From Verrucomicrobiota bacterium (GTDB taxonomy: Bacteria > Verrucomicrobiota > Verrucomicrobiia > Chthoniobacterales > UBA10450), in assembly GCA_019244415.1 (NCBI GenBank), contig JAFASN010000112.1, positions 2,265 through 66,264 of the forward strand: DNA of 64,000 nucleotides. Reading direction: 5' to 3'. Shown here piece by piece: positions 6,022 to 52,450 of the stretch. The translations under genes and the position numbers were made by a program. The notes beneath the pieces were generated by a model. The model was not told the origin of the DNA and did no database searches. It saw only the letters and a list, made by a program, of their open reading frames with translations. Within the stretch, counting starts at the first letter, position 1; each line of letters opens with the position of its first letter.

Positions 6022-6558
6022 CTAAATGGTTTCGGAGGGCGAAACGGCGAGCAACTCCTCGTACCGCTCTTCCAGTTCGCGGTAGCGCGCTTCCGCGTCT
6101 CGCAGGGCGCGGCGTTCTTCGCGCAAACTGCGCTCGAGATCGCGGATGCGTTCCTCAAAATTAATGGCCATGCGCGTGGCGGCCGGCGTCTCGCCAGATT
6201 CTTCATCGTGGTTGGTCTTCGCTGACGAGAAAAACGACTCGATCTCCGCAATGCGCTGGCGCGAGCCGTTGCACGCGTTAATGACGAAGTGCTCGGGCGT
6301 AATTTCGCCGGCCTGCACAAACTCGTGGATCGCGCCCAGCGTGGTCGGTCCGTAATAGCGCTCAGTCGTTACCTCGACCAGCCAATCCATGCCCAGCTCA
6401 GCCAGCATGGGCGCTTTCATCCACGTTTCCTGGTCCGGTGAGACGAGGTCCTGTGGCGCAATGCGCGCCGTTGCCGCCCATTGCACAAGCTGCGCGAACG
6501 GCAGCGGACCGAAGAGTGTTCTGTCCTCGTGTTTACAAAGATACCAGCTCGCGTCCAT
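6022..6558 (-). CDS. GYF_2-like domain protein with C-terminal coiled coil
   Basis: WYLCKHEDRTLFGPLPFAQLVQWAATARIAPQDLV and a second YYGPTTLGAIHEFVQAGEITPEHFV repeat, then a charged ELEERYEELL tail. Immediately downstream of the LysM gene on the same strand. Confidence 0.5.
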   Translation of the reverse strand: MDASWYLCKHEDRTLFGPLPFAQLVQWAATARIAPQDLVSPDQETWMKAPMLAELGMDWLVEVTTERYYGPTTLGAIHEFVQAGEITPEHFVINACNGSRQRIAEIESFFSSAKTNHDEESGETPAATRMAINFEERIRDLERSLREERRALRDAEARYRELEERYEELLAVSPSETI

Positions 6559-6560
6559 CG

Positions 6561-7019
6561 CTACTCCGCGGGCGAAGGCGACGGCGAAGTACTCGGGGAG
6601 GCGGACGGCGCCGGCGGCGGAATCATGACAGTCTGGCCAGCTTGTAATTTCCGGCCGTCCTCGATGTGGTTAAACTTTTGCAGTTCTTCCACGCCGACCT
6701 TGTACTGCTTCGCGATGGAAGTGAGTGTTTCGCCGCGAGCGACGACGTGAGTGTTCCCGCCGGGGTGCGCAGGTTCAGCGCTCGCCACCGGCATCGCGCT
6801 CGGCGCAGGCGTCGCTTCGCCGACCATGACGCCTGGTTTTGTCATTTGTTGCTCGATTTTCAGGAGCTGTTGCGAAAGCGCGTCAAGCTTGCCGTTAATC
6901 TCATCGATCTTCGTCGTGAGCGCGTCCATCTGCGATGGCGCGGGCGAATTCTCCGGCGCCTGGGCAAACGTCGTTGCGGCGCAAAGAATCGCCGCGAGCA
7001 GGGCCGGAAGGAATTTCAT
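6561..7019 (-). CDS. secreted LysM peptidoglycan-binding protein
   Basis: Signal peptide MKFLPALLAAILCAATTFAQA, coiled segment, and C-terminal LysM HVVARGETLTSIAKQYKVGVEELQKFNHIEDGRKLQAGQTVMIP. Start moved to the Met before the signal peptide. Confidence 0.8.
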   Translation of the reverse strand: MKFLPALLAAILCAATTFAQAPENSPAPSQMDALTTKIDEINGKLDALSQQLLKIEQQMTKPGVMVGEATPAPSAMPVASAEPAHPGGNTHVVARGETLTSIAKQYKVGVEELQKFNHIEDGRKLQAGQTVMIPPPAPSASPSTSPSPSPAE

Positions 7020-7116
7020 CGCGGCAATCTTGGCACCGCCCGCACGGGCTGGCAAGACATCGCGCAGAGCGCTCGCTCCTTGCGCGAAGCGACATTCGCG
7101 TTACACTTTTTTGCTG

Positions 7117-7293
7117 ATGCCGGAGCGCATTCAAAAGCCGGTGGAACCGGCGCCGTGGGGGCCGAAACAGGGAGACGGCGATGGGCCGCGCTCGCCTGAT
7201 ATTTCGCGGCCTGACACGAAGGACTTGCTGGAAAAGATGCGCAAAGTCGATCCGAACCAATCGAAACGTTACCGGCAGCGAACTGGGCAATAA
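7117..7293 (+). CDS. UBact / Pup-like prokaryotic ubiquitin-like modifier (58 aa, C-terminal Gln)
   Basis: MPERIQKPVEPAPWGPKQGDGDGPRSPDISRPDTKDLLEKMRKVDPNQSKRYRQRTGQ. Low-complexity N-half, then a conserved DLL.KMRKVDPNQ.KRYRQRTG[QE] end as I recall for UBact. Its stop overlaps the proteasome beta start (TAATG). Confidence 0.75.
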   Translation: MPERIQKPVEPAPWGPKQGDGDGPRSPDISRPDTKDLLEKMRKVDPNQSKRYRQRTGQ

Positions 7294-8111
7294 TGGAGCC
7301 TGCCGGTGTGCAGCCGCTCGAATCGGGCGTGAGCGGCGCAACTGATTTCCCTTCGCTGCTCCGGCGCAACGGTCTGCTCCGAGCGCCCATTGAAACAAAC
7401 GTCACGAAAGTACGGGACGCCGCGATATTGCCGACGCAGGCGACAACAATTCTCGCCTTCAAATTCGCCGACGGCGTACTTGTTGCCGGAGATCGTCGCG
7501 CCACCGCCGGCAACACCGTGGTTTACGATCGCGCGGACAAGGTGCTCGAGATCGACGAGCATTCGATCATGGCCATTGCTGGTGTGCCGGCGACTGCGTG
7601 GGAGATGGCGCGCGTACTCGAGCATTCGTTTCAATTTTTTCGCCGCACGCAGCTCCAGGAAATGAGTGTGGACGGCAAAGTACGAGCCCTTTCGAAACTA
7701 TTGCGGGACAATCTCGGTTTCGTCATGCAGGGAGTCGGTGTCGTCGTGCCGATCTTCGCCACGTTCGACGCCAAAGCATCCCCCTCAGCGCGGCTTTATT
7801 TCTACGACGCCATGGGCGCGCAATTCGAGGCGGCTGATTTCGCCGCCACTGGCTCCGGCTCGCCGGCCGTGCGCGGAATTCTTTACTACGAAAATACCTG
7901 GGGCAAAAAGCCGCTCCACAAAATCGGCGAAGACGAGGCGGTCGTAGTGGCATTGCGCGCGCTCGACACCGCCTCCGAAGCTGACACCGCGACGGGCGGA
8001 ATCGACCGGCACGCGCGCATTTTTCCGATGATGAAGACGGTTTCCGCTGACGGGATCAAGACGCTGCCAGAAGAACGGATCGCGGAACTTTTCCACAAGC
8101 GCGTCGCATGA
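7293..8111 (+). CDS. prcB: 20S proteasome beta subunit (Ntn hydrolase with propeptide)
   Basis: Propeptide followed by TTILAFKFADGVLVAGDRRATAGN (Thr1 nucleophile context, compare actinobacterial PrcB TTIVAL..GDRR). ATGA overlap with the next gene. Confidence 0.85.
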   Translation: MEPAGVQPLESGVSGATDFPSLLRRNGLLRAPIETNVTKVRDAAILPTQATTILAFKFADGVLVAGDRRATAGNTVVYDRADKVLEIDEHSIMAIAGVPATAWEMARVLEHSFQFFRRTQLQEMSVDGKVRALSKLLRDNLGFVMQGVGVVVPIFATFDAKASPSARLYFYDAMGAQFEAADFAATGSGSPAVRGILYYENTWGKKPLHKIGEDEAVVVALRALDTASEADTATGGIDRHARIFPMMKTVSADGIKTLPEERIAELFHKRVA

Positions 8112-8866
8112 TCGAAGAGCCGTATCGCTGGGTGGAAGCGATCGCCACGCGGCGCGATTACGTCGAGACGCAGCTTTCCTCGGGCAGTCCCATCATCGCG
8201 CTAACTTTTGCTGATGGCATTCTGTTGTTCACGGTGGGTCAGCAAAAGCTTTTCGAGATTTACGATCGCATTGCCCTCGGCGCGATCGGTCACCCCGGCG
8301 ACATCGAGCGGCTGCGCATGGCCGCGATCGAACTGGCGAGTACGGAAGGATTCGCGCGCTCGGCCGCGGATGTCTCGCTGCGGCGGCTGGCGTACTATTC
8401 GCTCAGTCCAGTAATGAAAAATGCGTTCGAGCAAATCTACGGCGCGCCCTTTCTGGCGCGGTTGTTGTTCGCCGAAATCGGAGCGACGCCGGCGGAGGAT
8501 TTATTTTTGCGAGTGGAGTACGACGGCGCAATCAGCCAGAAGAAAAGCGGTAACAAAAGATTCGCGGTACTCGCGCCGACAAAAAAATCCGCTGAGCAGA
8601 TGGAGCAATTTCTCGAGCGCGAAGATCACGGTGACGAAGACATGACCGCCGCACTCGAGCTTGCCTTTGACGCGTGGGCGGCCGGCCAAAAACAAGCTGA
8701 GGAAGGCGCTGTTTTGCCCGGTCGGGAGGAGATTCGCGCCTGCCGCCGCGAGCGGCTGGGGGACGGCATCATGGAAGCCGTTGTGCTTGAGCGCCGGGCG
8801 CGCTCGCCTGTGCAATATCGCACCGTCGAACAAAAACAGCTCGCCGCATTAAGCGAGCAGGTGTGA
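8108..8866 (+). CDS. prcA: 20S proteasome alpha subunit
   Basis: SPIIALTFADGILLFTV, KLFEIYDRIALGAIGHPGD and LFLRVEYDGAI align by eye with actinobacterial PrcA (ELYDRVGFAAAG, LYRITYDGSI). Confidence 0.8.
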   Translation: MIEEPYRWVEAIATRRDYVETQLSSGSPIIALTFADGILLFTVGQQKLFEIYDRIALGAIGHPGDIERLRMAAIELASTEGFARSAADVSLRRLAYYSLSPVMKNAFEQIYGAPFLARLLFAEIGATPAEDLFLRVEYDGAISQKKSGNKRFAVLAPTKKSAEQMEQFLEREDHGDEDMTAALELAFDAWAAGQKQAEEGAVLPGREEIRACRRERLGDGIMEAVVLERRARSPVQYRTVEQKQLAALSEQV

Positions 8867-9648
8867 TGAAGCGGCGAGGCGGGCCCGGGGTTCTGAATGC
8901 GCTCGCCTGGCTCGGACTTGCACTGCTCACCGCATCATTTCTCGTACTCACTTTGCAGCCGCCGCGGCAGATTCCGCGAGGCGCGATGCAGCAGCGGGTA
9001 CGTGAGCCGTTCGCTGTTGTCGTCATCGACCCAGGGCACGGCGGCGCTGATTCCGGCGCGATGGCGGGCAACATTCTGGAAAAAGATCTGACGCTCGATA
9101 TCGCGCATCGGCTCGAGCAGCGGCTTGCGTCTGAAGGCGTGGCCACAGTCATGACCCGTGTGGGAGATTCGTATGTGGCGCTGGCCGAACGCGCAGCGTT
9201 GGCGAACCGCGCGAACGACGCTGTCTTTATCAGCATTCACGTTAACGACGGTTCACGCGCACTGGCCACCGGAGTCGAGACGTACTTTGCCGCGCAACAA
9301 AACACACCGGCGACGCGGCTGGCCAGTTGGCTGCCGTTTCTGCAGAAGGTTTCCCAACAGGCGCCAAACGTGCAGAGTCAAAGTCTGGCTGGGTTCATCC
9401 AGCAGGCGCTTGTCACTCAGACACACGCCACTAACCGCGGCACGAAAGCAGAGCAGTTTTATGTCCTCGCTAATGTGCGCCATCCGGCGGTGCTGGTGGA
9501 AACCGGTTTTCTCACCAACAAAGACGAAGCGGACAAATTATGTGACGCCAATTATCGCGAGCAAATCGCGCAGGCGATCAGCTCCGGCGTACTAAAATAT
9601 CGCGAGGCGCTGCGGGGGCAGCGGGCTATTGAAGGTGGCTCTGAATAA
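8863..9648 (+). CDS. N-acetylmuramoyl-L-alanine amidase (Amidase_3 type), membrane anchored
   Basis: N-terminal TM helix, VVVIDPGHGGADSGA, VFISIHVN, ETGFLTNKDEADKL. The start overlaps the prcA stop. Confidence 0.85.
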   Translation: MMKRRGGPGVLNALAWLGLALLTASFLVLTLQPPRQIPRGAMQQRVREPFAVVVIDPGHGGADSGAMAGNILEKDLTLDIAHRLEQRLASEGVATVMTRVGDSYVALAERAALANRANDAVFISIHVNDGSRALATGVETYFAAQQNTPATRLASWLPFLQKVSQQAPNVQSQSLAGFIQQALVTQTHATNRGTKAEQFYVLANVRHPAVLVETGFLTNKDEADKLCDANYREQIAQAISSGVLKYREALRGQRAIEGGSE

Positions 9649-9682
9649 GGCGAAATTCCGGGGCGTCCAAGTAGGCACAGCG

Positions 9683-10414
9683 ATGAGATGGAAATTCGCC
9701 ATTTTGCTGATGGTATCGGCGCAGCTCGCGTGGGCCGATGCGACCATCCAGCAGGCGCAGGAAGCACTGAAAGCGCAGGGCTATTATTATGGCCAGATTA
9801 CCGGAGAGAAAAATGCCGATACCGCTGCGGCCATCCGGCGCTTCCAGATTCGCAATGGCTTGCAGGTCACAGGCGAGCTGAACGACGAAACTTTGCGCGC
9901 GCTGAATTCAGACTCCGCTGTGGCGGTCGCCACCGCAACACCTGCCTCGGCAGAGCCGCGCACCGGGCAATCTGTCCAGCCGGAGCAGCGTAGCGATGAT
10001 TTGCGCGACGAAATTCCGCCACAACCGCCAGCGACAGCGCCTCGGATCGCGCGACCCTTGGATGACAGCTTCGCGCAGCCGCCGCCGGGCAATGCTGGTG
10101 GCGTATTTGCCCAGACACCGTACTCGACCGCACCGGCGCAATTGCAGCGCGAGATCCTTGCTGAGGTGGAGACTAGTTTGCGGCGTCGCGGTTTATACCA
10201 AGGCGCGACCGATGGCCTCTACGGCCCTGAACTGCAAGTTGCCCTGCGTAATTATCAGTCGCGCATCGGTCTTCCCCCGACCGGGCGGCTCGACATGGAG
10301 ACGCTCGCTTCACTCGGTTTGTTGCCGGGACAACATGGACCACGTGCGCCGCGTCGCTGGTTCGGGCCAAGGCCGATGCAAGAGCCGCCGGTCCGAGGCG
10401 AGTGGATCCATTAA
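9683..10414 (+). CDS. secreted protein with two PG_binding_1-type peptidoglycan-binding domains
   Basis: Signal peptide MRWKFAILLMVSAQLAWA. LKAQGYYYGQITGEKNADTAAAIRRFQIRNGLQVTGELNDETLRAL and LRRRGLYQGATDGLYGPELQVALRNYQSRIGLPPTGRLDMETL are separated by a Pro-rich linker. Confidence 0.75.
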   Translation: MRWKFAILLMVSAQLAWADATIQQAQEALKAQGYYYGQITGEKNADTAAAIRRFQIRNGLQVTGELNDETLRALNSDSAVAVATATPASAEPRTGQSVQPEQRSDDLRDEIPPQPPATAPRIARPLDDSFAQPPPGNAGGVFAQTPYSTAPAQLQREILAEVETSLRRRGLYQGATDGLYGPELQVALRNYQSRIGLPPTGRLDMETLASLGLLPGQHGPRAPRRWFGPRPMQEPPVRGEWIH

Positions 10415-36943: not shown

Positions 36944-37081
36944 CCATAGCAATTGGCGCCGCAGAATCAGGAAACGCTGCACCGCTGATGAATGTAGCGG
37001 TTTTAGGAACTCCGCATTGAAGCGACGACAATTTCGTTGCCAAATCGCGCCGGTTCGCAACGATGGCGCCTGCGCATCGCT

Positions 37082-38047
37082 ATGAAAAAAATCGGCATTC
37101 TTTTCGGCCAGGAAAACAGTTTTCCCTGGGCGTTCATTGATCGAGTTAGGCAGAAGACCGGCGGCACAGACATCGCGGCCGAGCCGGTGCGGATCGACAA
37201 AGTCATCCAGGGCGAGCCGTGCGGTTACCATGTGGTGATCGACCGCATCTCGCAGGATGTGCCCTTCTATCGCGCGTGGCTCAAGAATGCAGCGCTCACC
37301 GGAACCGCCGTCGTCAACAATCCGTTTTGGTGGAGCGCGGATGAGAAGTTCTTCAATAACGCGCTCGCGACGAAAATCGGCGTCGCCGTTCCGAAGACGG
37401 TACTTTTGCCATCGCACGAGGTCCCGCCAGACACTAACGCCAACTCATTCCGGAATCTGGCGTACCCGCTCGATTGGGACGCGATTTTTGAGTACGTGGG
37501 CTGGCCAGCGTTCTTCAAACCGTTCGCCGGCGGCGGCTGGAAGAATGTCTATCGCCTACATAATCCCGAGGAATTTTACCGCGCCTACAGCGAGACCGGC
37601 CAGCTGGTGATGATGCTCCAGGAAGAAGTGAAATTCGATATGTACTTCCGCTGTTACTGCATCGACCAAACTGGCGTGCGCGTGATGCCGTACGAGCCGC
37701 GTCATCCCTATCATCTGCGTTATCAGACCGAGTGGCGGGCGCCGCGGGAAATCATCGAGCAGGTCGAGTGGGGCGTGCGCCGGCTGAATGAGTACTTGGG
37801 CTACGATTTGAACACGGTGGAGTTCGCCATTCGCGACGGCGTTCCGGTGGCGATCGATTTCTGCAATCCCGCGCCGGACGCCGAGGTCACGTCGGTCGGG
37901 CAGGCCAATTTTGACTGGGTGGTTGACGCCGTTTCCGAAATGGCCATCCGCAAAGCGCGCGAGCATCAGCCCGGGCGCGACAATCTCACCTGGGGCAAAT
38001 TCGTGCAGGCGGCAGTGGCGCGGCGCGAGCTGGGCGAAGTACGATAA
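37082..38047 (+). CDS. ATP-grasp family ligase (RimK/glutathione-synthetase-like)
   Basis: MKKIGILFGQE, NNPFWWSADEKFFNNALATKIGVAVPKTVLLP, WPAFFKPFAGGGWKNVYRL, NTVEFAIRDGVPVAIDFCNP. Confidence 0.75.
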   Translation: MKKIGILFGQENSFPWAFIDRVRQKTGGTDIAAEPVRIDKVIQGEPCGYHVVIDRISQDVPFYRAWLKNAALTGTAVVNNPFWWSADEKFFNNALATKIGVAVPKTVLLPSHEVPPDTNANSFRNLAYPLDWDAIFEYVGWPAFFKPFAGGGWKNVYRLHNPEEFYRAYSETGQLVMMLQEEVKFDMYFRCYCIDQTGVRVMPYEPRHPYHLRYQTEWRAPREIIEQVEWGVRRLNEYLGYDLNTVEFAIRDGVPVAIDFCNPAPDAEVTSVGQANFDWVVDAVSEMAIRKAREHQPGRDNLTWGKFVQAAVARRELGEVR

Positions 38048-42926: not shown

Positions 42927-43886
42927 ATGAATCCATCCACGCTCACTGTTTTGATCCCGTGCTTGAACGAAGAGCTTGGGATTGCCGAGGTCGTTCGCGA
43001 GTACTCACGGGCATTTCCTTACGCCGAAATTCTCGTCGTTGATAACGGCTCCGAAGACAGCACGGCCGATGCTGCACGCGAAGCCGGCGCGCTCGTACTC
43101 AAGGAGCGGCGCCGTGGCAAGGCGCGCGCCGTCGCCACCGCCTTGGAACAGATCGACACGGATCTCGTCTTGATGGTAGATGGCGATGGAAGCTATCCCG
43201 CCGCCGGCGCCCGCCTGTTGCTGGACCAATTCCAACGCGAACCGGCAGACATGATCAGTGGCATTCGCAGCGCGCAGGATGACGTCTTTCGCCCGCTCCA
43301 CCAATGGGGCATGTCAGTTTTTGCTTCCGTCCTGAACCTCGTCTTCGGATTCAAACCGCTCGATCTCTTTTCCGGACTTCGCTTGTTGTCAGGCCGCTTT
43401 TATCAACATGTGCCGGTACTCTCACGCGGTTTCGAGCTGGAGATCGAGCTGACAATCCAGGCCATTGATAAGGGTTTCTCGCTCGCGGAAGTCCCCGTCC
43501 CATTTTGCAGCCGCACCGGAGGTTCTCGCTCGAAACTACGCACCGTGCACGACGGCCTGCGCATTCTTCGCCTGCTCGCCGTCCTGTTTCGCGATTACCG
43601 GCCATTCGCCTTCTTCGGCACACTCGGCGGATTGCTCGCGTTCGCTGGGTTGACCGCCGGTTCGTTGCCAATTGCCGAGTTCTTTCGCACCGGGCAGGTA
43701 GGAAGATTTCCTCTCGCCATCCTTGCCGCGTCGCTTGTCTCGCTTGCGATTCTGCTGGCGCTAATAGGAACTGTTTTACAGGCAAACCTTCGCTACCATC
43801 GCGAGGCTTACCACATTCAGCTGCGGAAATTTCGCGCACCCTCACGGAGGGAGCAGCGTTCTTTCGCCCGCGTGCTCGCCAGCTGA
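42927..43886 (+). CDS. GT2 polyprenol-phosphate glycosyltransferase (GtrB/ArnC-like) with C-terminal TM hairpin
   Basis: LTVLIPCLNEE, ILVVDNGSEDST, LVLMVDGDGSYP, then two C-terminal TM helices FAFFGTLGGLLAFAGL.. and PLAILAASLVSLAILLALIG. Confidence 0.85.
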   Translation: MNPSTLTVLIPCLNEELGIAEVVREYSRAFPYAEILVVDNGSEDSTADAAREAGALVLKERRRGKARAVATALEQIDTDLVLMVDGDGSYPAAGARLLLDQFQREPADMISGIRSAQDDVFRPLHQWGMSVFASVLNLVFGFKPLDLFSGLRLLSGRFYQHVPVLSRGFELEIELTIQAIDKGFSLAEVPVPFCSRTGGSRSKLRTVHDGLRILRLLAVLFRDYRPFAFFGTLGGLLAFAGLTAGSLPIAEFFRTGQVGRFPLAILAASLVSLAILLALIGTVLQANLRYHREAYHIQLRKFRAPSRREQRSFARVLAS

Positions 43887-43897
43887 CCTGCTGCCTG

Positions 43898-45130
43898 ATG
43901 GTGGGGAAGGAAAACAGTACAAGAATAGCTGGCGAGAAGCTGCGCAAACGCATCGCTACTATCGCGCAGTACTATCCACCGCACGTTGGTGGCCTAGAGA
44001 TTGTAGCTCAGAAGCTCGCGCAGAGCCTTGTTGAGTACGGGCACGAAGTCAGCGTAGTAACATGCAGCACCACCGCCCCGGGAACCTCCACCGAAAACGG
44101 AGTAAAGGTCAGACGGTGCAAAGCATTCAACCACCTCGATAACTACTTCAGTATTCCCTTCGCGTTCTTCGGCCGAAATGTGTTCGAGGCGTTAAAGACT
44201 GAGATCGAAGCAGCCGACCTTGTCCACATCCATGATGTACTCTATCCCATATCATGGATCGCTTACCTGCTTGCCCGCCGCTATGCTAAACCAGTTTGCA
44301 TTATTCAACACGTCGCACTCGTTTTTCATACGAATGCATCCGTGCGCATGGCGCAGCAGCTTGTTTACAGGACCGTAGGCAAAGCGATGCTCAACCGTAG
44401 TAATCAGGTCATTGCTTACAACAAAACGGTCAAGCAATTCTTTCTGAAACTCGGTCTTCGCGATGGACAAGTTGTTCAAATGCGGAATGGCGTTGATCTT
44501 GATTTGTTTAGCCCATCGACTGACCGGTTGGCGGAGACGCGGCTAAAGTACGGCCTGGGCACCGACAAGCCAATCGTGCTGTTTGTCGGTAGGCTCGTGC
44601 CAAAGAAAGGGTTCCAACTACTTCTTCAAACTGCCGGTGAAGACATTCAGCTCGTTTTTGTGGGCAGCGGCAAGTTGCGTCATGACGAGCAGCTCTTGCC
44701 AAACGCACGTTTCTTAAGTGCGCTTGGTCAGGCTGAATTGGCCGAGCTCTATCGAGCCAGTGATTTGTTCGTACTTCCAAGTACGGGAGAAGTTTTCCCT
44801 CTAGCGGCGCAAGAAGCCATGGCCAGCGGTCTCCCGCTAATCTTAGGAGATGACCCCGGCTACAGCGAATACCGGATCGATCGCGCGATGATCACGCTGG
44901 TTCGACCAGAGCCAGTATTATTAAGTCGAGCCATCCGGCAGCTTCTCGGTGATGCAAGCCGCCTCGCCAAAATGAGGTTGTACTCAAGGCGATTTGCCGA
45001 GGAACATTTCGATTGGGAGACGAACCTGCTGCAAGAAAGCAGGACTTACGTTGACCTGCCCGTGCGCGCAGCGCCTGCTTCTGCTGCATCTGCGCGCTGT
45101 GAGATACATAAAGCCGCAACTGCTGCGTGA
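43898..45130 (+). CDS. GT4 family glycosyltransferase
   Basis: IATIAQYYPPHVGGLEIVAQKLAQSL, VGRLVPKKGF, LPSTGEVFPLAAQEAMASGLP (E-x7-E region). The start is moved to ATG 43898 because upstream codons overlap the GT2 gene. Confidence 0.85.
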   Translation: MVGKENSTRIAGEKLRKRIATIAQYYPPHVGGLEIVAQKLAQSLVEYGHEVSVVTCSTTAPGTSTENGVKVRRCKAFNHLDNYFSIPFAFFGRNVFEALKTEIEAADLVHIHDVLYPISWIAYLLARRYAKPVCIIQHVALVFHTNASVRMAQQLVYRTVGKAMLNRSNQVIAYNKTVKQFFLKLGLRDGQVVQMRNGVDLDLFSPSTDRLAETRLKYGLGTDKPIVLFVGRLVPKKGFQLLLQTAGEDIQLVFVGSGKLRHDEQLLPNARFLSALGQAELAELYRASDLFVLPSTGEVFPLAAQEAMASGLPLILGDDPGYSEYRIDRAMITLVRPEPVLLSRAIRQLLGDASRLAKMRLYSRRFAEEHFDWETNLLQESRTYVDLPVRAAPASAASARCEIHKAATAA

Positions 45131-46254
45131 AAAACCCGAAGATTTTAATATTCAAGCTCGGTCTGCTCGGAGATGTCATCATGACTACGCCCTTCGTCCG
45201 GCAACTTCGCAGCATTTGTCCCAGGAGCGAAATCCAGTACTGGACATCGAGGGAATTCGCCGCGCCTCTTGTAGGTAATCCTCACCTTTCGCGCGTTCTC
45301 GGCTTCGACTCGGCCCCGTTTTACCGTAAAGATGTCGCTGGTGCGTTACGGCTGCGGCAGCGGCTACGCTCTGAAGTTTTCGACATAGGATTCTTTCTAG
45401 GCAAGCACTGGTTCTTTAACGCTTTCGCTGCTTCGTTAGGCATACCGCGGCGCATAGGCTTCGCGCGCGAGCCAATCAGTCGCTGGTTCCTAACGGATAG
45501 TGTTGCCTACCGCGAGCTGCGACACGAAATTCATTACTACCTGGATTTACTCAACTTCGTCGGTGAACCCGATCGATCGGATATAGCTATGGAAGTAGCT
45601 ACTTCGAAGGAATGCGAGACGAGGGCAAACTCGTTGATGGAGCAGTTCCGGCTCGACGGATTTATCGGCGTAATCAACAGCGGCGGTAACAATGCCGGCG
45701 AGAGCGGTTTCGTTCGCCGGCTGCCTTCAGATTTCTTTGTCCAGCTCGTGCGCAACCTGGCGCAACGCACGAAAGTCGTTCTTTTTGGTAACACCGTCGA
45801 TGGTGAGTACTACGGGGCATTCTCGTTCCCCCGCGAAGTGATAAACCTGGCGGGCCGCCTATCCTTTCACGAGAGCCTCGCCCTGATGAGACGAGCTAAC
45901 CGCATGTTTACGACGGACTGTGGTGGAATGCACATGGCTGGAGTAGTAAACCGAAACATCACGGCCTTTTTTGGGCCGGCGCATCCCGCGCGGAAGGCAC
46001 CCCTCCTCGGTAACGTAGAGATCGTCTGGCCTGATCGCGATAAGTACGATGCGAAGTACGATCTCTACAACCTGCCACCGGCCGAACCGCTATTTCAGGA
46101 GATTAAGATACGGCGGACTTCAGGTGCGGGACGGATGCATGCAGGTGGGCAGGCAAGCGTTTGCCTGACACGAAATCGAAAGTCCCGGACGGGAGGAGAC
46201 AGCATCAGCTCTCCGGTACAGCTCGGAGCAAGTGAGCGCATCTTGTCTTGGTAA
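45127..46254 (+). CDS. GT9 family glycosyltransferase (heptosyltransferase-like)
   Basis: KILIFKLGLLGDVIMTTPFVRQLR, GINSGGNNAGESG, TTDCGGMHMAG. The last about 50 codons lack recognisable features and overlap the convergent flippase gene. Confidence 0.8.
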   Translation: MKNPKILIFKLGLLGDVIMTTPFVRQLRSICPRSEIQYWTSREFAAPLVGNPHLSRVLGFDSAPFYRKDVAGALRLRQRLRSEVFDIGFFLGKHWFFNAFAASLGIPRRIGFAREPISRWFLTDSVAYRELRHEIHYYLDLLNFVGEPDRSDIAMEVATSKECETRANSLMEQFRLDGFIGVINSGGNNAGESGFVRRLPSDFFVQLVRNLAQRTKVVLFGNTVDGEYYGAFSFPREVINLAGRLSFHESLALMRRANRMFTTDCGGMHMAGVVNRNITAFFGPAHPARKAPLLGNVEIVWPDRDKYDAKYDLYNLPPAEPLFQEIKIRRTSGAGRMHAGGQASVCLTRNRKSRTGGDSISSPVQLGASERILSW

Positions 46255-47543
46255 AGTTGCTTACGGATAGCAATAACAACGGGCAGGTAAAGAAACGTTG
46301 CCGCGGCGAGGGAAATCATTGTTCCTTTCAACCCGTATAGGGGTTCAAGAAGGAACGTCCCAGCAATGCCGAATGTCAGTTCGGCAATGCCACAGCGCGC
46401 GACGACGCCGCCAGCCCCGAGTGATAAGCCAGTGTAACTCAGGAATCGACTAGCCGCGATCGAGAATCCCACCGCGGCGATACACATTCCGGTGAGGACG
46501 CCGAACGGCGCCGGTGCTTTTAGCCACAAGGTGAAAAACAGGGGTGCTGCCGCAACAATGATCAGCGCGCATGGCACCGTACACACCAGAGCGCATCTCA
46601 GAATTGAGTAGAAGACGGACGCGCGTTCTTCCGCGCTGCGAGACGCTGGCAGCGCCACAAGCGCGACGTCGAACGAAACAGCGCCCAGCGCGCTGATGAT
46701 CTCCGCCATGCGCAGGCAAATAAAGAACGTTCCCGCGACTGTGACGCTGCCGACGCTTGCGAGGACGAAGGTGATTGCGTGTGTTTTCGCTGCCCAGGTC
46801 ACGTTCGACACAGTGAAGCTGAAAGTATCGCGATAAGTCAGGCACAGTTTCGCGGTCGTAATCTCACGCAGTCGAAGGAGCGGCCGAAGCTCATCAAAGC
46901 GCAAGAGAGCGACACCCAGTGCAGTTACAAGTAAAGCGCCAATCCAACCCGCGACGACCGCGGTCACGCTGGCTCCCCGCCACAAAAGAACCGCTGCAAC
47001 GAGTGATGCAGCCATCCACCCGAGCGCATTCGCGAGCTTGACCAAACCAATGTGCCCGCGAGCCACGCAGGGCTCGAGCGCTATGGTCACGAACATGTAG
47101 GGCAGGGTGAGCGTTGTTACGACAAAGATTATGTTTTCGTGCGGGCGATCGATTCCAAAGACAGCGCTCCAGATGTGTAAGCTCGTGCAAAGGGCTACGA
47201 GTACCAGGGCAACGAGACAAAGTGCGGCGAAAGCTACAAGAGCATGGGATAGGAGCGACGCCGAGGCAGCGTTATCACTGACGACTTTGGACAAAGCGAC
47301 GCGGGTGCGGCCACGAAGGCCAAGATCAGCTAACGACAACAAGACAAAAGCGGAGCTGGCCAGCGCGAACTCGCCGTAACCTTCCGGACCCCAATTATGC
47401 AGCATCCATGGCGTGAGGCCTATCATGAAGATCGCTTTGGCGATGAATGCGATTGTCTCCCAAAGCTGGTTCGAGAATAGTTGCCGGTGAAGAGTTGGTC
47501 GCTTTTGAGCCAGCATGGCTGAGTTCGCTATCGTGCGATCCAT
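46095..47543 (-). CDS. Wzx-like oligosaccharide flippase (MOP superfamily)
   Basis: 482 aa and about 12 TM helices, with an N-terminal WETIAFIAKAIFMIGLTPWMLHNWGPEGYGEFALASS pattern typical of polysaccharide biosynthesis flippases. Confidence 0.7.
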   Translation of the reverse strand: MDRTIANSAMLAQKRPTLHRQLFSNQLWETIAFIAKAIFMIGLTPWMLHNWGPEGYGEFALASSAFVLLSLADLGLRGRTRVALSKVVSDNAASASLLSHALVAFAALCLVALVLVALCTSLHIWSAVFGIDRPHENIIFVVTTLTLPYMFVTIALEPCVARGHIGLVKLANALGWMAASLVAAVLLWRGASVTAVVAGWIGALLVTALGVALLRFDELRPLLRLREITTAKLCLTYRDTFSFTVSNVTWAAKTHAITFVLASVGSVTVAGTFFICLRMAEIISALGAVSFDVALVALPASRSAEERASVFYSILRCALVCTVPCALIIVAAAPLFFTLWLKAPAPFGVLTGMCIAAVGFSIAASRFLSYTGLSLGAGGVVARCGIAELTFGIAGTFLLEPLYGLKGTMISLAAATFLYLPVVIAIRKQLYQDKMRSLAPSCTGELMLSPPVRDFRFRVRQTLACPPACIRPAPEVRRILIS

Positions 47544-47549
47544 TAGGAT

Positions 47550-49235
47550 CTAGCGGTAATGCATGGTAGGCAGCTGAAGTTCGGTTAGGCCTTCGACCTT
47601 GACGAACAACGTATTCGGGTACTTCGCTTCCAATGTTTCCACCTGATCTTTGCTTATTCGCAGCGGAGTCATGATGACCGGGCGGTTCGCCAGGAATGGA
47701 TCGTTGCGACGCAAATCCGCCGAGTACCAGGCGAGAGTTGGATCGAAAATGAGAAGACTGGCGTTGACGTGGTGGAACGCTTCCGCTGCATCGGCATACG
47801 GGCGGACAAACGTTTCCGCCTGAAACGCACGCAACGGTAGTTGCAGCAACAACGACGCGAGCACGCCACCAGTAATCAAGCTGGTGGCAGTGTCCCGTCC
47901 GGCCCTAGCTTTAACGACGTCCCAGCCAACAACAGCTAACAGGATGAGACAACCAAGTTCGCCGTGAAAATAGCGATCTCCCCAACCGTGACTCTGATCC
48001 TGGCGAACAAAGACGTAAAACCCAAATGTCAGCAGACAACTCGCAGCGGCGCAACGAATGATCGGTGTCTGGCGCTTGAGCGCGCCGAAGCCGAACGGAG
48101 TTAGAATAAGCAGCGGGAAAGCAAGCCAGCCCACGAGTAGGAAGAAGTAGATCGACTGGATGAGCCAGGTAAGACGATGAACACGAAAGGCACTCGGAGA
48201 GGAGCCGCCAACAAAACCCGGGAGAAAGGTTCGCCACCAAATGATCCAGACAGCAATGCCAATGAAATACACGACGGCAAAAAAAACGCTCGCGAACCAG
48301 CGCCGGTCCCAGACGAGCTTGAGAAGAAAAGGCAGGACGAAAAGCGCATGAAAGAAAGGTTGATGCAAACCCAGGGCGGCAACCCCGACGAACGGAGTTA
48401 GCCAGAAACGGCGTTTTTCCGGCGCAAGGTAAAGCCACAGCCAGAGTAGATTCAGGGCGAGATGCGCGGGCATCGCGTACGATGTCATAGACATCAGTAG
48501 GAATTGTGATGAGGTGGCAAGCAGCGCTGCGGCGAGGATTGGTTTCCAGGTAGAAGCGGGCCAGAGTTTGCCCGCAATTGCTGCCATGAGAGCAATGCTT
48601 AGCGCAGCTAATGCCGGATTCGTCAGCCATTCCGAATCGAAAGACATGAACAGGGCTCGAATAAGAGAATAGACGGGCAGGTACTCAGACGCCCAGCTAT
48701 GCGTCGCTGGATTGTAACTTGTGTAAGTGGGCTTGATCAGGTGCACAAAGGGCTGCCAAGCCGGCGGAACCGGCGCGCTCAGTTGGCCGCTTAGAAAAAT
48801 GCGCGCCTGAAAATCAGGCATATTTTCATCCGCAGTGAGGGCATATTGATGAAATACCAACGACGTCCCCAGTGCGGTGATGCCGAAGGTAAGGCAGACG
48901 AGAGTGATAAGTACGAGGCGGGGCTTTATTTGCGTGAGACGTAAGGGCGCGGGGCGGCCGATTGCCACCCAGACTAATGTAGCGGCAGCAAGTGCAAGCA
49001 CCACGAGGAGTCCGGCGAACTCATTTCTGGCGAAGAGAACAAAGAAGGCGTTGTACCAGTCGCGAGGGTCAGGATGGCTGATCCACTGGGTGCGAAGCCA
49101 GAGGCACAGAACAATTCCGCCGGTGGCCACACCGATAATGCCGCACAGGATTACTGCCAGGCTTCGGCACGGTCGCCCGCCGTCTACCTTCGGCGATGTA
49201 GCACGCTGAAGAGCATTGGGGTTTAGTTGGGACAT
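47550..49235 (-). CDS. polytopic membrane protein, GT-C-like glycosyltransferase candidate
   Basis: 561 aa with many TM helices, an acidic first-loop motif LTADENMPDFQARIF, and a soluble C-terminal region. Confidence 0.5.
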   Translation of the reverse strand: MSQLNPNALQRATSPKVDGGRPCRSLAVILCGIIGVATGGIVLCLWLRTQWISHPDPRDWYNAFFVLFARNEFAGLLVVLALAAATLVWVAIGRPAPLRLTQIKPRLVLITLVCLTFGITALGTSLVFHQYALTADENMPDFQARIFLSGQLSAPVPPAWQPFVHLIKPTYTSYNPATHSWASEYLPVYSLIRALFMSFDSEWLTNPALAALSIALMAAIAGKLWPASTWKPILAAALLATSSQFLLMSMTSYAMPAHLALNLLWLWLYLAPEKRRFWLTPFVGVAALGLHQPFFHALFVLPFLLKLVWDRRWFASVFFAVVYFIGIAVWIIWWRTFLPGFVGGSSPSAFRVHRLTWLIQSIYFFLLVGWLAFPLLILTPFGFGALKRQTPIIRCAAASCLLTFGFYVFVRQDQSHGWGDRYFHGELGCLILLAVVGWDVVKARAGRDTATSLITGGVLASLLLQLPLRAFQAETFVRPYADAAEAFHHVNASLLIFDPTLAWYSADLRRNDPFLANRPVIMTPLRISKDQVETLEAKYPNTLFVKVEGLTELQLPTMHYR

Positions 49236-49346
49236 CGAGGAGCGAGAGCCGAATAATCAGAGCAGCCTTTACGCCAATGCGACGCGCTGGATAGGTCGAG
49301 TAAGTTTGAGCGATGGCTTAGCACGGGAATTGCAGCAGCAATTCCG

Positions 49347-50621
49347 ATGGAATTCGCTCCGGTAGGGACGCTCGGCGCCGCGCCTCTAGCGGCGAACCCG
49401 GGGGTGGCTACGTCGAAGAGCCGCGCTTCTAGATTCAGCACAGCGGCCTCGCGAGTTCTTCTTTTCCTTCTGGTACTCTTCATCGGGATTGTGGTGAGAG
49501 TTTACTGCTCGAGCGGATTCCGCGGCGTCGGATTCGACGAGCATGCCTACACCGTTTTCCTCACTGAAATCGAAAAAAGCGGCGCACTGAACTACGACCT
49601 GGTTATGCGCGTTTGCCTTGAACGACAGCAGCGTACGGCCGACGCAATCGTCCCAGCGACACGAGTAGGCTTTCTTCTGCCGGCATATGCCGTTGCGGAG
49701 GTGTTCCAAGTGTCACCATTCGTCGCGCTGCGATATCTGAATTGCGGGGCAGCGATACTCACGCTGCTGATAACGTTGGCTTTTAGTTACCGCGCACTCG
49801 GGATGGGAGCGATGCTAGGAATAGGATGCCTGATGGCTACTTCTCCCCTAGCTATTCACTTGAGCCAAAGAGCTCTGGTCGATGGTTACTTTAGTTTATG
49901 GGCAACGACAGCAGTATGGCTGGCGTGGGAAAATCTTCGTTGCCCTCGACACCTGGGCTGGCTTGCAGCCTATTTTGCCAGCCTTGTACTTCTCGTACTC
50001 ACAAAGGAAAGCGCCGCCTTTGTCGTGGTCGGTTTGTGTGCTGTTCTACTGTGGTATGGTCTCCAGGGCTGTTGCCCGTGGCGTTTGTGGGTCGCTACAA
50101 TGGCTGGCCCAGTAGTTGCGATTGCCGTCCTGGCGACATTGACGGGCGGAATAACTAAACTGGTGCAGTTCTACTACGTGTTCGAGAGCAAGTCCGGGCA
50201 CAATATCTATTCCGTCATGGCACAGGATGGTCCGTGGTACCGTTACCTGATTGATTTCATATTACTATCGCCGCTAATCACGACATTTGCTTTAGGGGCT
50301 ATCTTCCATCTACGACGATCGGTCGACACCGCTCTTGCCATATTCCTTGGGGCGAGCTTCGTCGTGATGTCGGCGGTGAGCCATGGAATGAGTCTGCGCT
50401 ATGCGGCCTACTGGGAGTTACCGTTGTGCTGGCTGGCCTTTTTGCAGGTGGAACTACTTGCGGAAAAAGTACGGCGGAATTGGCGACCGTTCGCCATAGC
50501 CGGAATGGTCGTGTTGCTGAGCGCAACTAATCTTTGGCAGTACCAGCGTCTTTTTGTAGCTGGTGAGATATACGATCCTATATCGTTCCAGCTTGCTCGC
50601 GCTACTCACCTTATAAAGTAA
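49347..50621 (+). CDS. GT-C fold (ArnT/PMT-like) membrane glycosyltransferase
   Basis: Polytopic. First-loop motif FRGVGFDEHAYTVFLTEI resembles the GT39/ArnT DE motif. Confidence 0.6.
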   Translation: MEFAPVGTLGAAPLAANPGVATSKSRASRFSTAASRVLLFLLVLFIGIVVRVYCSSGFRGVGFDEHAYTVFLTEIEKSGALNYDLVMRVCLERQQRTADAIVPATRVGFLLPAYAVAEVFQVSPFVALRYLNCGAAILTLLITLAFSYRALGMGAMLGIGCLMATSPLAIHLSQRALVDGYFSLWATTAVWLAWENLRCPRHLGWLAAYFASLVLLVLTKESAAFVVVGLCAVLLWYGLQGCCPWRLWVATMAGPVVAIAVLATLTGGITKLVQFYYVFESKSGHNIYSVMAQDGPWYRYLIDFILLSPLITTFALGAIFHLRRSVDTALAIFLGASFVVMSAVSHGMSLRYAAYWELPLCWLAFLQVELLAEKVRRNWRPFAIAGMVVLLSATNLWQYQRLFVAGEIYDPISFQLARATHLIK

Positions 50622-50626
50622 GTACG

Positions 50627-52450
50627 CTAGTCGTGGTTTAGTTCCGTATTAAGCGTGGCGAACTCCGCCTGGCCGGGGGCAAGCTCGAGCGCGCGAGCTA
50701 TCTCGCGGCGGGCGTCTTCGCGTTCGCCTTGCTCGAGCATGGCCTGGGCGAGCAGGTAGTGTGTTTTTGCGTTGCCTGGCTCAGCGGCTTCGGAGCGGGA
50801 GAGTAATGCGCGAGCCTCGTCTCCGTGACCCAGGTTAAGCTTGAGTACAGCAAGGTTATTCAATGCTCCGCGGTGATCAGCTTCGAGCGCGAGCGTCTCC
50901 TCGTACAAACTAGCCGCAAGGTTTGCATCTCCTCGTGCAAGTTCCAGATTCCCGAGCGCGAAGATTGTCTCGGCGTTATTCGGAACGTAGGCGTGCGCGA
51001 GCTCAAGGTCCTTTTGCGCGACATCGAGCTGGTTGGCTTCGAGGGCGAGCCGCCCTGAGTTATAGGGGTCGAGCGCCCAAAGCGCCCGATCACGTTGCGG
51101 CCATGAAACGATGACAGCGGCGCACATGGTCGCCGCGGCGTAGGCAAGACAGGGCTTGTACTTTGCGGAACGGATATTCTGCCACAGCGAAACCAACCCC
51201 AAGGCGGCGAAGATTAGCAGACCGGGAACGATGGGCAGCCGGTAGCGTTCGGTGATGAATACCGGCAGCAACGCGGCGCCGTAAAGTGCGACGGCGACCA
51301 TGATCCAGCGCGACTGGCGTGCCGAGCGCCAGGCCAGGAGCAAGCCGGGCAATGCGAGCGACGCGGCGAGCCCAAAGTAAATGCCGGGAAACGTGATCGC
51401 ATTCGCGCGTAACGTGGTGATGAAACTGAGGTCATCGTACTGAAAAGCGCTGACAAGGTTGCGCAGCTTTACGGCGAGAAGCTTCAGCCAGGCAATCGGA
51501 TGTTGCTGAATGTAATCGCGCGCCCGCCCTGACCAGTAGCGCGACACCTCACCGCGCTTCAGCCGATGACCGGCGGCCTTCTCCGCTACCGTGATTGAAT
51601 CGTGTAACATCGCCGCCTGACCCGCGCTCAAACCCGGCGGCAGGCGCGGATAGCCGTTCCCTTGTGGATTGTTACCGATCCAAAAGTTGATGCCGCTGTG
51701 GGCGGAGAGCAGCACATGATCGTGCGCGACAAAGTAGTTATGCATCCAGCAAGGCGACGTGCCAGCGGCGAGCCCGAGGAACAGTAAAGCCGCCGCCACG
51801 ATGCCGCTCTTCACGCTTTGCCGATGTTTCTCTCGTCCAAACATTGCGCCGAACAGGAGCGGGACGAGCGACAGGATAGTAGCCACTGCGGTCGCGGTGA
51901 TCCCGACCAGCAATCCCAAACCGAGCGCGGCATAACTACGCCGCGCGCTGTCATTTCGTATGATCCACCAAACAACAAACCAGAAAATAAAGACCGCCAG
52001 GCTGGTCGGCATGAGAATGGCGGCATAGGTTTGCGCCGGAACGAAAAAGGCCCAGCCCGAGGCCGCGATGAAGCCGGTGATGGCAGCGAGCCGCTTCCCC
52101 GTTGTGGCGAAAACCGATCTGCTGATCAGGTAAAGCAACGCGGCCGTGCCCGCGTCGGCAGCGCTCTGTAACGGTCCGGGCAGAAACGGATTGTAGCCGG
52201 CCACGCGATAAAGCGCTGCGAGCAGCCAGGCGTAGCCCGGCAGCCCATAGAAGGCGAGAGCGGTTGCGCCGTGTCCGGCGACGATGCGCCGGGCCCAATC
52301 ATTGTAAAACTGCGTGTCGCCGCCTGATGGGAGGAGAAAAGGGGACGCGCTTAGCCGCGTCAGGACGACGAGACGAAGGAGCAAAACGCCGCCAAAAATC
52401 CAGAGAGCTGGGGATTGGTGAATTTGGCGCGCTTTTCTCGGAGGGGTCAT
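50627..52450 (-). CDS. GT-C fold membrane glycosyltransferase fused to C-terminal TPR repeats
   Basis: N-terminal about 430 aa is polytopic (SGGDTQFYNDWARRI first loop). The C-terminal part has TPR repeats (ALEANQLDVAQKDLELAHAYVPNNAETIFALGNLELARGD...). Confidence 0.7.
   Translation of the reverse strand: MTPPRKARQIHQSPALWIFGGVLLLRLVVLTRLSASPFLLPSGGDTQFYNDWARRIVAGHGATALAFYGLPGYAWLLAALYRVAGYNPFLPGPLQSAADAGTAALLYLISRSVFATTGKRLAAITGFIAASGWAFFVPAQTYAAILMPTSLAVFIFWFVVWWIIRNDSARRSYAALGLGLLVGITATAVATILSLVPLLFGAMFGREKHRQSVKSGIVAAALLFLGLAAGTSPCWMHNYFVAHDHVLLSAHSGINFWIGNNPQGNGYPRLPPGLSAGQAAMLHDSITVAEKAAGHRLKRGEVSRYWSGRARDYIQQHPIAWLKLLAVKLRNLVSAFQYDDLSFITTLRANAITFPGIYFGLAASLALPGLLLAWRSARQSRWIMVAVALYGAALLPVFITERYRLPIVPGLLIFAALGLVSLWQNIRSAKYKPCLAYAAATMCAAVIVSWPQRDRALWALDPYNSGRLALEANQLDVAQKDLELAHAYVPNNAETIFALGNLELARGDANLAASLYEETLALEADHRGALNNLAVLKLNLGHGDEARALLSRSEAAEPGNAKTHYLLAQAMLEQGEREDARREIARALELAPGQAEFATLNTELNHD

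Follow-up and report, generated by a model that had tools for sequence, protein, structure and literature searches.

A 58-codon reading frame at 7117..7293 on the forward strand, hidden within a longer open reading frame (ORF) and joined at its stop codon to the gene for a proteasome beta subunit, raises two questions: whether it encodes UBact, a small Pup-like modifier, and how such a modifier could act at a locus where no genes for a ligase or an unfoldase are found nearby. We addressed these questions in a window of 64,000 nucleotides, which is the whole stretch of DNA analysed and to which all coordinates refer unless another locus is named. The host is an uncultured bacterium from soil that belongs to the Candidatus Udaeobacter group of the Chthoniobacterales. 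It is virtually certain that a genuine UBact gene occupies 7117..7293. The best explanation of the whole, which we consider probable, is that UBact is the first cistron of a UBact-prcB-prcA operon and serves as a Pup-like tag that feeds the proteasome. The UBact family, which is said to have been described by Lehmann, Udasin, Livneh and Ciechanover in 2017 (BBRC 483:946), is already curated in Pfam and NCBIfam and annotated automatically by NCBI, and the gene reported here is another member of it.

The original prediction, which was made from the sequence letters, placed a UBact gene directly before prcB and prcA, and both curated profiles of the family are passed by wide margins. Translation of 7117..7293 gives MPERIQKPVEPAPWGPKQGDGDGPRSPDISRPDTKDLLEKMRKVDPNQSKRYRQRTGQ, followed by TAA, and is identical with the 58-residue product quoted in that prediction. 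The profile search that had been proposed as a check returned 79.6 bits against Pfam PF20513 (UBact; gathering cut-off 27.8, E = 1.4e-22) and 82.9 bits against the NCBIfam equivalog NF033388 (UBact; cut-off 35, E = 1.3e-23), and in the latter alignment residues 7-58 of the peptide correspond to positions 2-54 of the 54 profile positions. The predicted overlap with the proteasome beta gene is also present in the sequence: the last A of the TAA stop codon (7291-7293) is the A of the prcB ATG (7293), giving TAATG. Near-identical proteins are already named UBact in JGI data.

We then compared the gene with its counterparts in 80 related species-level loci, all from metagenome-assembled genomes (MAGs) and mostly from soil, extended to 87 loci for the analysis of the UBact ORF. 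The related loci, for which we use labels such as L017 and L072, are assigned to Verrucomicrobiota, Chthoniobacterales, Spartobacteria or Candidatus Udaeobacter, and one (L030) is labelled Alphaproteobacteria. The UBact ORF was found in 87 loci and is uninterrupted in each of them; its start codon is ATG in 84 of the 84 upstream regions examined, and a TAATG or TGATG overlap with prcB is retained in most of the loci. As the conservation test suggested at the outset had envisaged, the small ORF and its C-terminal Gln or Glu are kept ahead of prcBA in the 80 related species. Averaged over sequence pairs, the differences are 0.066 at first, 0.045 at second and 0.441 at third codon positions, and the ratio of nonsynonymous to synonymous substitution rates (dN/dS) among related species is about 0.036. 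UBact is the best conserved gene at the locus, with identities of 79-98%, compared with 66-87% for PrcB and 52-81% for PrcA. A search of 5.8 billion proteins yielded 451 UBact homologs, and the best 120 of them are all at least 88% identical over 58 of 58 residues.

It could be argued that the product is longer, since the frame is open from 6751 and the mechanical ORF (6751..7293) has 180 codons from a GTG start. The product might then begin at this GTG or at another upstream start, or the frame might be a chance one antisense to the neighbouring LysM gene in GC-rich DNA. Gene callers also assign lengths of 66-102 amino acids to homologs of the peptide, the best 120 of the 451 being called at 58-102 residues. 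However, 118 of these 120 carry spurious N-terminal extensions that are not conserved and share no similarity with one another, and similarity sets in abruptly at MPERIQKP, that is, at Met1. NCBI gene calls put UBact of the relatives at 56-58 residues, and the family profile is already covered by residues 7-58. Furthermore, 6751..7019 is antisense to a well-supported gene for a secreted LysM protein (6561..7019, reverse strand; supported by the gene call on the source contig and by Pfam), which diverges from UBact. The original prediction had put about 120 codons of the long ORF antisense to LysM; this holds for about 90 of the 122 codons that precede the ATG, whereas the remaining 97 nucleotides (7020..7116) form the divergent intergenic region between LysM and UBact. 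A chance frame is also at odds with the dN/dS of 0.036. The abrupt onset of conservation at Met1 and the dN/dS value thus refute both the long and the chance ORF, to which we attach next to no probability.

The region ahead of the ATG contains a predicted sigma-70-type promoter (7080..7107, forward strand), which consists of TTGCGC at 7080-7085, a spacer of 16 nucleotides and TACACT at 7102-7107, the latter ending 9 nucleotides ahead of the UBact ATG. Anchoring 83 distinct upstream regions at the ATG reveals a conserved T-T-G-C at -33..-30 and TA..TT at -11..-6. Alignment of 15 Chthoniobacterales upstream regions gives TTGC(G/C)N, a 16-nucleotide spacer and TAnnnT, followed by 5-9 nucleotides to the ATG. 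A consensus promoter scanner called no promoter upstream of UBact, because TTGCGC matches TTGACA poorly. The geometry of the motif predicts an mRNA leader of 0-3 nucleotides, that is, a leaderless or nearly leaderless transcript. The sequence preceding the ATG reads ...TACACTTTTTTGCTG and is without a Shine-Dalgarno sequence, as had been noted before. A leaderless mRNA would explain the absence of a Shine-Dalgarno sequence, the invariant ATG, and the tendency of gene callers to miss the gene or to over-extend it. An Rfam scan of 6800..7500 gave no match. We also observed an inverted repeat, GCGCGAA-GCGACA-TTCGCGT, at 7082..7101 (forward strand), which fills the predicted -35/-10 spacer and was flagged as terminator-like by the scanner; it is not conserved in related loci and could be an operator or a chance occurrence.

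The gene is indeed hidden, as the original prediction put it: the window lies in the European Nucleotide Archive contig ERZ27313809 k141_122029 (85.9 kb) and its sequence recurs in Logan run SRR7091543, and the gene calls on both jump from LysM to PrcB. UBact is likewise omitted from the gene calls of several sister-lineage contigs; the NCBI pipeline calls and names it in other genomes. It appears that standard gene callers systematically miss UBact or add a false N-terminal extension, and a leaderless transcript is the likely cause. Surveys of UBact that start from predicted proteomes therefore undercount it.

The two genes that follow encode a 20S proteasome which, judged from its sequence, is apparently active. 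The prcB gene (7293..8111, forward strand) specifies a beta subunit of 272 amino acids that matches the Pfam Proteasome family (E = 2.6e-28) and TIGR03690 (172 bits), and its best PDB matches are the beta subunits of Rhodococcus and M. tuberculosis (E about 1e-30). A propeptide of 50 residues precedes the mature Thr1 at residue 51, and D67 and K83 read as Asp17 and Lys33, so that the catalytic residues are intact. The prcA gene (8108..8866, forward strand), whose start overlaps the prcB stop (ATGA), encodes an alpha subunit of 252 amino acids (TIGR03691, E = 2.4e-20) with PDB matches to the alpha subunits of Rhodococcus and M. tuberculosis (E about 5e-12). The 20S subunits are thus closest to the actinobacterial ones of the Pup-proteasome system.

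The UBact peptide falls into two halves. Residues 1-32 contain 38% Pro plus Gly and are near neutral, and residues 33-58 are basic (isoelectric point 10.2) and end in RYRQRTGQ. An AlphaFold2 model from a 30-sequence alignment has a mean predicted local distance difference test score (pLDDT) of 68.7, with coil at 1-32 (pLDDT 53-60) and short helices at 34-43 and 48-56 (pLDDT 77-86); a Foldseek search of this model against the PDB returned no match. Pup forms two helices in the groove of PafA, and the predicted two-helix segment at the C-terminus of UBact resembles these in the model. The two helices of Pup on PafA were reportedly described by Barandun et al. in 2013.

The universal form of the C-terminal half, LL.(K/R)M(R/K)KVDP.Q..RYRQR(T/S)G(Q/E), makes up the final residues of the protein, and the eight residues preceding the terminal Q/E (RYRQRTG and the K or R before it) are invariant across 76 species. 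Of the 87 related loci, 80 encode a terminal Q and 7 a terminal E, and the switches are scattered among close relatives. Across the family, which comprises 156 clusters at 50% identity (E <=0.001; 1.84 billion proteins searched), 108 of the 150 representatives listed share the UBact ending, 73 with Q and 35 with E. By analogy with Pup, this interchange on an otherwise frozen tail is what would be expected if both versions end as a conjugated C-terminal Glu. One residue of the C-half is unusual in our sequence: codon 39 (7231..7233) specifies Glu (LLEKM), at a position occupied by Lys (LLKKM) in 72 of 76 related species, and it is the sole such residue in this otherwise frozen half. A PDB sequence search with the UBact profile gave a single match, residues 138-163 of 4nb5_A ('DNA binding protein'; EMRDLLAYMENVVSDALGRYSQRTGE). 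Its C-terminal region reads ...RYSQRTGE and resembles the core DLL..M..V....RY.QRTG[E]; at E = 0.95 we judged this match to be due to chance.

The likeness to the actinobacterial system extends beyond the proteasome subunits. Like UBact, Pup of Actinobacteria is small and largely disordered, ends in G-[Q/E] and is encoded beside prcBA. The Pup signature given by Iyer et al. 2008 (PMC2588565), a C-terminal G-[EQ] on a protein of 50-90 residues, is found in UBact, which has 58 residues and ends in ...TGQ. There are also differences, in that the C-half of UBact is strongly basic whereas Pup is acidic, the peptide here ends in TGQ and not GGQ, and no Dop, PafA or Mpa gene lies nearby. In comparison with known UBact, the gene conforms in its 58 codons, its Pro/Gly-rich N-half, its position directly upstream of prcB-prcA with an overlap, and its occurrence in Verrucomicrobiota.

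Comparison of gene order shows how far the locus has been stripped down. Other Verrucomicrobiota, and one MAG that carries the label Methylomirabilota, show the canonical order (L094, L095, L096), which is Mpa-like AAA ATPase, Pup_ligase, UBact, PrcB, PrcA and Pup_ligase, with a WYL regulator ahead of the ATPase in some. The ATPase (Prot_ATP_ID_OB_N plus AAA) has 565-570 amino acids there, the upstream Pup_ligase homolog 506 and UBact 56, and the overlap of the UBact stop with the prcB start also occurs in a canonical locus. Our locus is reduced to UBact-PrcB-PrcA: the Mpa-like ATPase and both the upstream and the downstream Pup_ligase of L094 and L096, which are PafA/Dop-family genes, are absent. 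Whereas UBact in canonical loci is an internal cistron after the upstream Pup_ligase (the Dop position), here it is the first gene of its own operon behind a promoter-like motif. The order UBact-prcB-prcA is common to the 80 related species and the canonical loci. In the Udaeobacter group the full order is an MsbA-like ABC transporter (forward strand), GYF_2 and LysM (reverse), UBact, PrcB, PrcA, Amidase_3 and PG_binding_1 (forward), and DUF3108, OmpH and BamA (reverse).

Sister Chthoniobacterales show a different layout. Where the Udaeobacter group has MsbA, seven sister loci (L072 and, recovered by way of its ligase, L083, L085, L086, L090, L091 and L093) have a gene for a CdsZ-like zinc-ribbon protein and one Pup_ligase gene, the latter about 1.5 kb upstream of UBact. 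No AAA ATPase was found within 10 kb in the sister loci that carry one Pup_ligase gene. The CdsZ-like protein (CT398_CC plus Zn_ribbon_9; 9148..9852 in L083) is encoded directly upstream of the single Pup_ligase in L083, L085, L086, L090, L092 and L093, and it scores 96 bits against NF047363, below the cut-off. Its gene also adjoins Pup_ligase in L084, where UBact is not nearby, and in L087 it lies a few genes further upstream; the protein may act together with the ligase or regulate it. In L087 (MAG contig JASCQV010009585.1, 13650..14753) UBact and prcB are both split by frameshifts, with the two UBact halves (MPERTQKP...GDGDGP and MSKPDTKDLL...RTGQ) in different frames, which points to indel errors of the assembly or to decay of the locus.

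Taken as a whole, the preferred explanation would work as follows. The operon would be transcribed from TTGCGC-N16-TACACT as a leaderless or nearly leaderless mRNA, and Gln58 of UBact would be deamidated to Glu, which is already present in some relatives. A carboxylate-amine ligase of the PafA/Dop family would then join the gamma-carboxylate of UBact to substrate lysines in an ATP-dependent reaction, and an Mpa-like AAA ATPase would recognise and unfold the tagged proteins, which PrcAB would then degrade. In this lineage the genes for the ligase and the ATPase would lie elsewhere in the genome. Degradation by PrcAB would probably feed the recycling of amino acids in an auxotrophic oligotroph. 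That conjugation and degradation of this kind operate in the host is, in our judgement, somewhat favoured.

A number of points weigh against the preferred explanation. The first concerns the link with Pup. The original prediction called UBact the Pup homolog; membership of the UBact family stands, whereas sequence homology to Pup could not be demonstrated. A Pfam search of the peptide at E up to 0.01 gave no match other than UBact, and none to Pup (PF05639), and an hhalign comparison of the UBact alignment with three Pup sequences was not significant (probability 0.33%, E = 0.18); in its register the DLL motif and the terminal G of UBact line up with those of Pup. 'Pup-like' therefore rests on context and pattern. 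In addition, Iyer et al. 2008 (PMC2588565) found a PafA gene 'invariably' next to the Pup gene, a rule from which our locus departs. In Rhodopirellula it is the proteasome genes that are missing from the neighbourhood (PMC2588565), whereas here the proteasome is present and the ligase is missing.

The second concerns the enzymes. No Pup_ligase or AAA unfoldase is encoded in the 64-kb window among the ORFs scanned with Pfam, namely all those of at least 420 amino acids, ten of 319-450 amino acids (four of them large unannotated ORFs) and the neighbours of UBact. Neither a Pup_ligase nor an AAA ATPase was found in the 2.3 kb of the contig before the window and the 8.6 kb after it, about 75 kb being covered in all. 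A faint ATP-grasp match at 37037..38047 (E = 0.025) was dismissed as a ligase candidate. Searches by tblastn with a PafA sequence in the 10 kb around UBact found a homolog in 1 of the 80 related loci (L072). The contigs with Pup_ligase that we recovered mostly have the sister-lineage layout, with variants in L084 and L087, and none comes from the 80 listed MAGs. The deamidation of the terminal Gln by a Dop-like enzyme, which the original prediction proposed, is supported by analogy only: the Q/E switching agrees with it, whereas no Dop candidate lies in about 75 kb of the contig, nor within 10 kb in 79 of the 80 related species. Finally, no conjugate, substrate or enzyme activity is reported for any UBact in the literature searched, and the leaderless transcript is itself a prediction from sequence motifs. 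The earlier statement that UBact biology is experimentally uncharacterised agrees with the searchable literature, in which we found no experimental work.

The missing ligase genes could mean that UBact is not conjugated here at all. It might act as a non-covalent cofactor of the 20S proteasome, for example in assembly, gating or substrate delivery, whose synthesis is coupled to that of PrcB, and the ligase and the ATPase would have been lost. This would agree with the lack of a ligase or ATPase gene in about 75 kb of the contig and within 10 kb in 79 of the 80 related species, as well as with the joining of UBact to prcB by the stop/start overlap in most loci. In the Udaeobacter group, moreover, the MsbA-like transporter gene occupies the position of the CdsZ-like and Pup_ligase genes of the sister lineages, and the corresponding upstream segment in L017 is only about 1.2 kb long. 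However, RYRQRTG[QE] is identical with and without an adjacent ligase, and a last residue restricted to Q or E fits a conjugated carboxylate and not a docking motif. Absence from the neighbourhood is also not absence from the genome, and according to Brewer et al. the bacterial proteasome components are all present in Ca. U. copiosus. We therefore consider a non-covalent role unlikely.

The sister lineages bear on another possibility, which is compatible with the tag model: a single undifferentiated enzyme of the PafA/Dop type ('PafA2 family'), encoded elsewhere in the genome, might carry out deamidation, ligation and removal of UBact, with no dedicated Dop. Sister Chthoniobacterales show only one Pup_ligase homolog near UBact, to which NCBI gives the name 'PafA2 family'. 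Its scores against the PafA and Dop models are nearly the same (326 and 317 bits, respectively) and fall under both cut-offs, and the UBact encoded beside it ends in Q in L083 and L086 and in E in L072 and L085. Single PafA/Dop homologs have been reported in Planctomycetes (PMC7947786), to which the one undifferentiated Pup_ligase near UBact in sister Chthoniobacterales can be likened. On the other hand, canonical Verrucomicrobiota loci have two paralogs, and our view of the sister loci spans 10 kb on each side, so that a second paralog may lie elsewhere. We hold this proposal only tentatively.

The GYF_2-domain protein encoded next to LysM (6022..6558, reverse strand) apparently has a pair of GYF-like repeats and, at its C-terminus, a coiled coil, and sister lineages likewise keep the GYF_2-LysM pair beside UBact. 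Proline-rich PPG-aromatic peptides are ligands of eukaryotic GYF domains, and we considered the GYF_2 protein as a receptor of UBact through the PxPWGP motif in the peptide. Two observations weaken this idea: about one third of the Udaeobacter-group loci have no GYF gene at this position, and the PW is not family-wide; PxPWGP occurs in only part of the family, with PW in 15 of 71 distant representatives. Directly after prcA lies an Amidase_3 (N-acetylmuramoyl-L-alanine amidase) gene (8863..9648, forward strand), whose ORF start overlaps the prcA stop, followed by a PG_binding_1 gene (9629..10414, forward strand). The order prcA-Amidase_3-PG_binding_1 is conserved across Chthoniobacterales, with or without a ligase gene. 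Far from UBact, 43500..50700 has a lower GC content (0.54-0.57), a strong AT skew and glycosyltransferase genes of GT4, GT2 and GT9. It also includes large ORFs without a Pfam match at 46095..47543, 47550..49235 and 49347..50621, the last with a faint Wzy_C match. This region looks like a surface-polysaccharide cluster.

The stripped-down Chthoniobacterales locus, the promoter geometry and the systematic mis-annotation seem to be undescribed, and they are modest additions to what is known of the family. One of the most abundant groups of soil bacteria on Earth retains UBact, the Gram-negative counterpart of Pup, in almost invariant form. Members of the Udaeobacter group have many amino-acid auxotrophies, and a reliance on proteasomal recycling has been proposed for it. 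The occurrence of UBact-PrcBA alone in this group, and together with one undifferentiated ligase in sister lineages, provides a natural comparison set for the partners that UBact needs. There is a slight chance that in Udaeobacter the dedicated Mpa, Dop and PafA genes have become detached from the UBact-20S module or have disappeared, while UBact is still under extreme purifying selection. If complete genomes lack a Pup_ligase-family gene, UBact may work with the proteasome independently of a ligase or be conjugated by an unrelated enzyme. In the weaker form, one undifferentiated PafA2-type enzyme would cover deamidation, ligation and removal. Either a ligase-independent role or conjugation by an unrelated enzyme would, if true, mean that a Pup-type tag can act in a new way.

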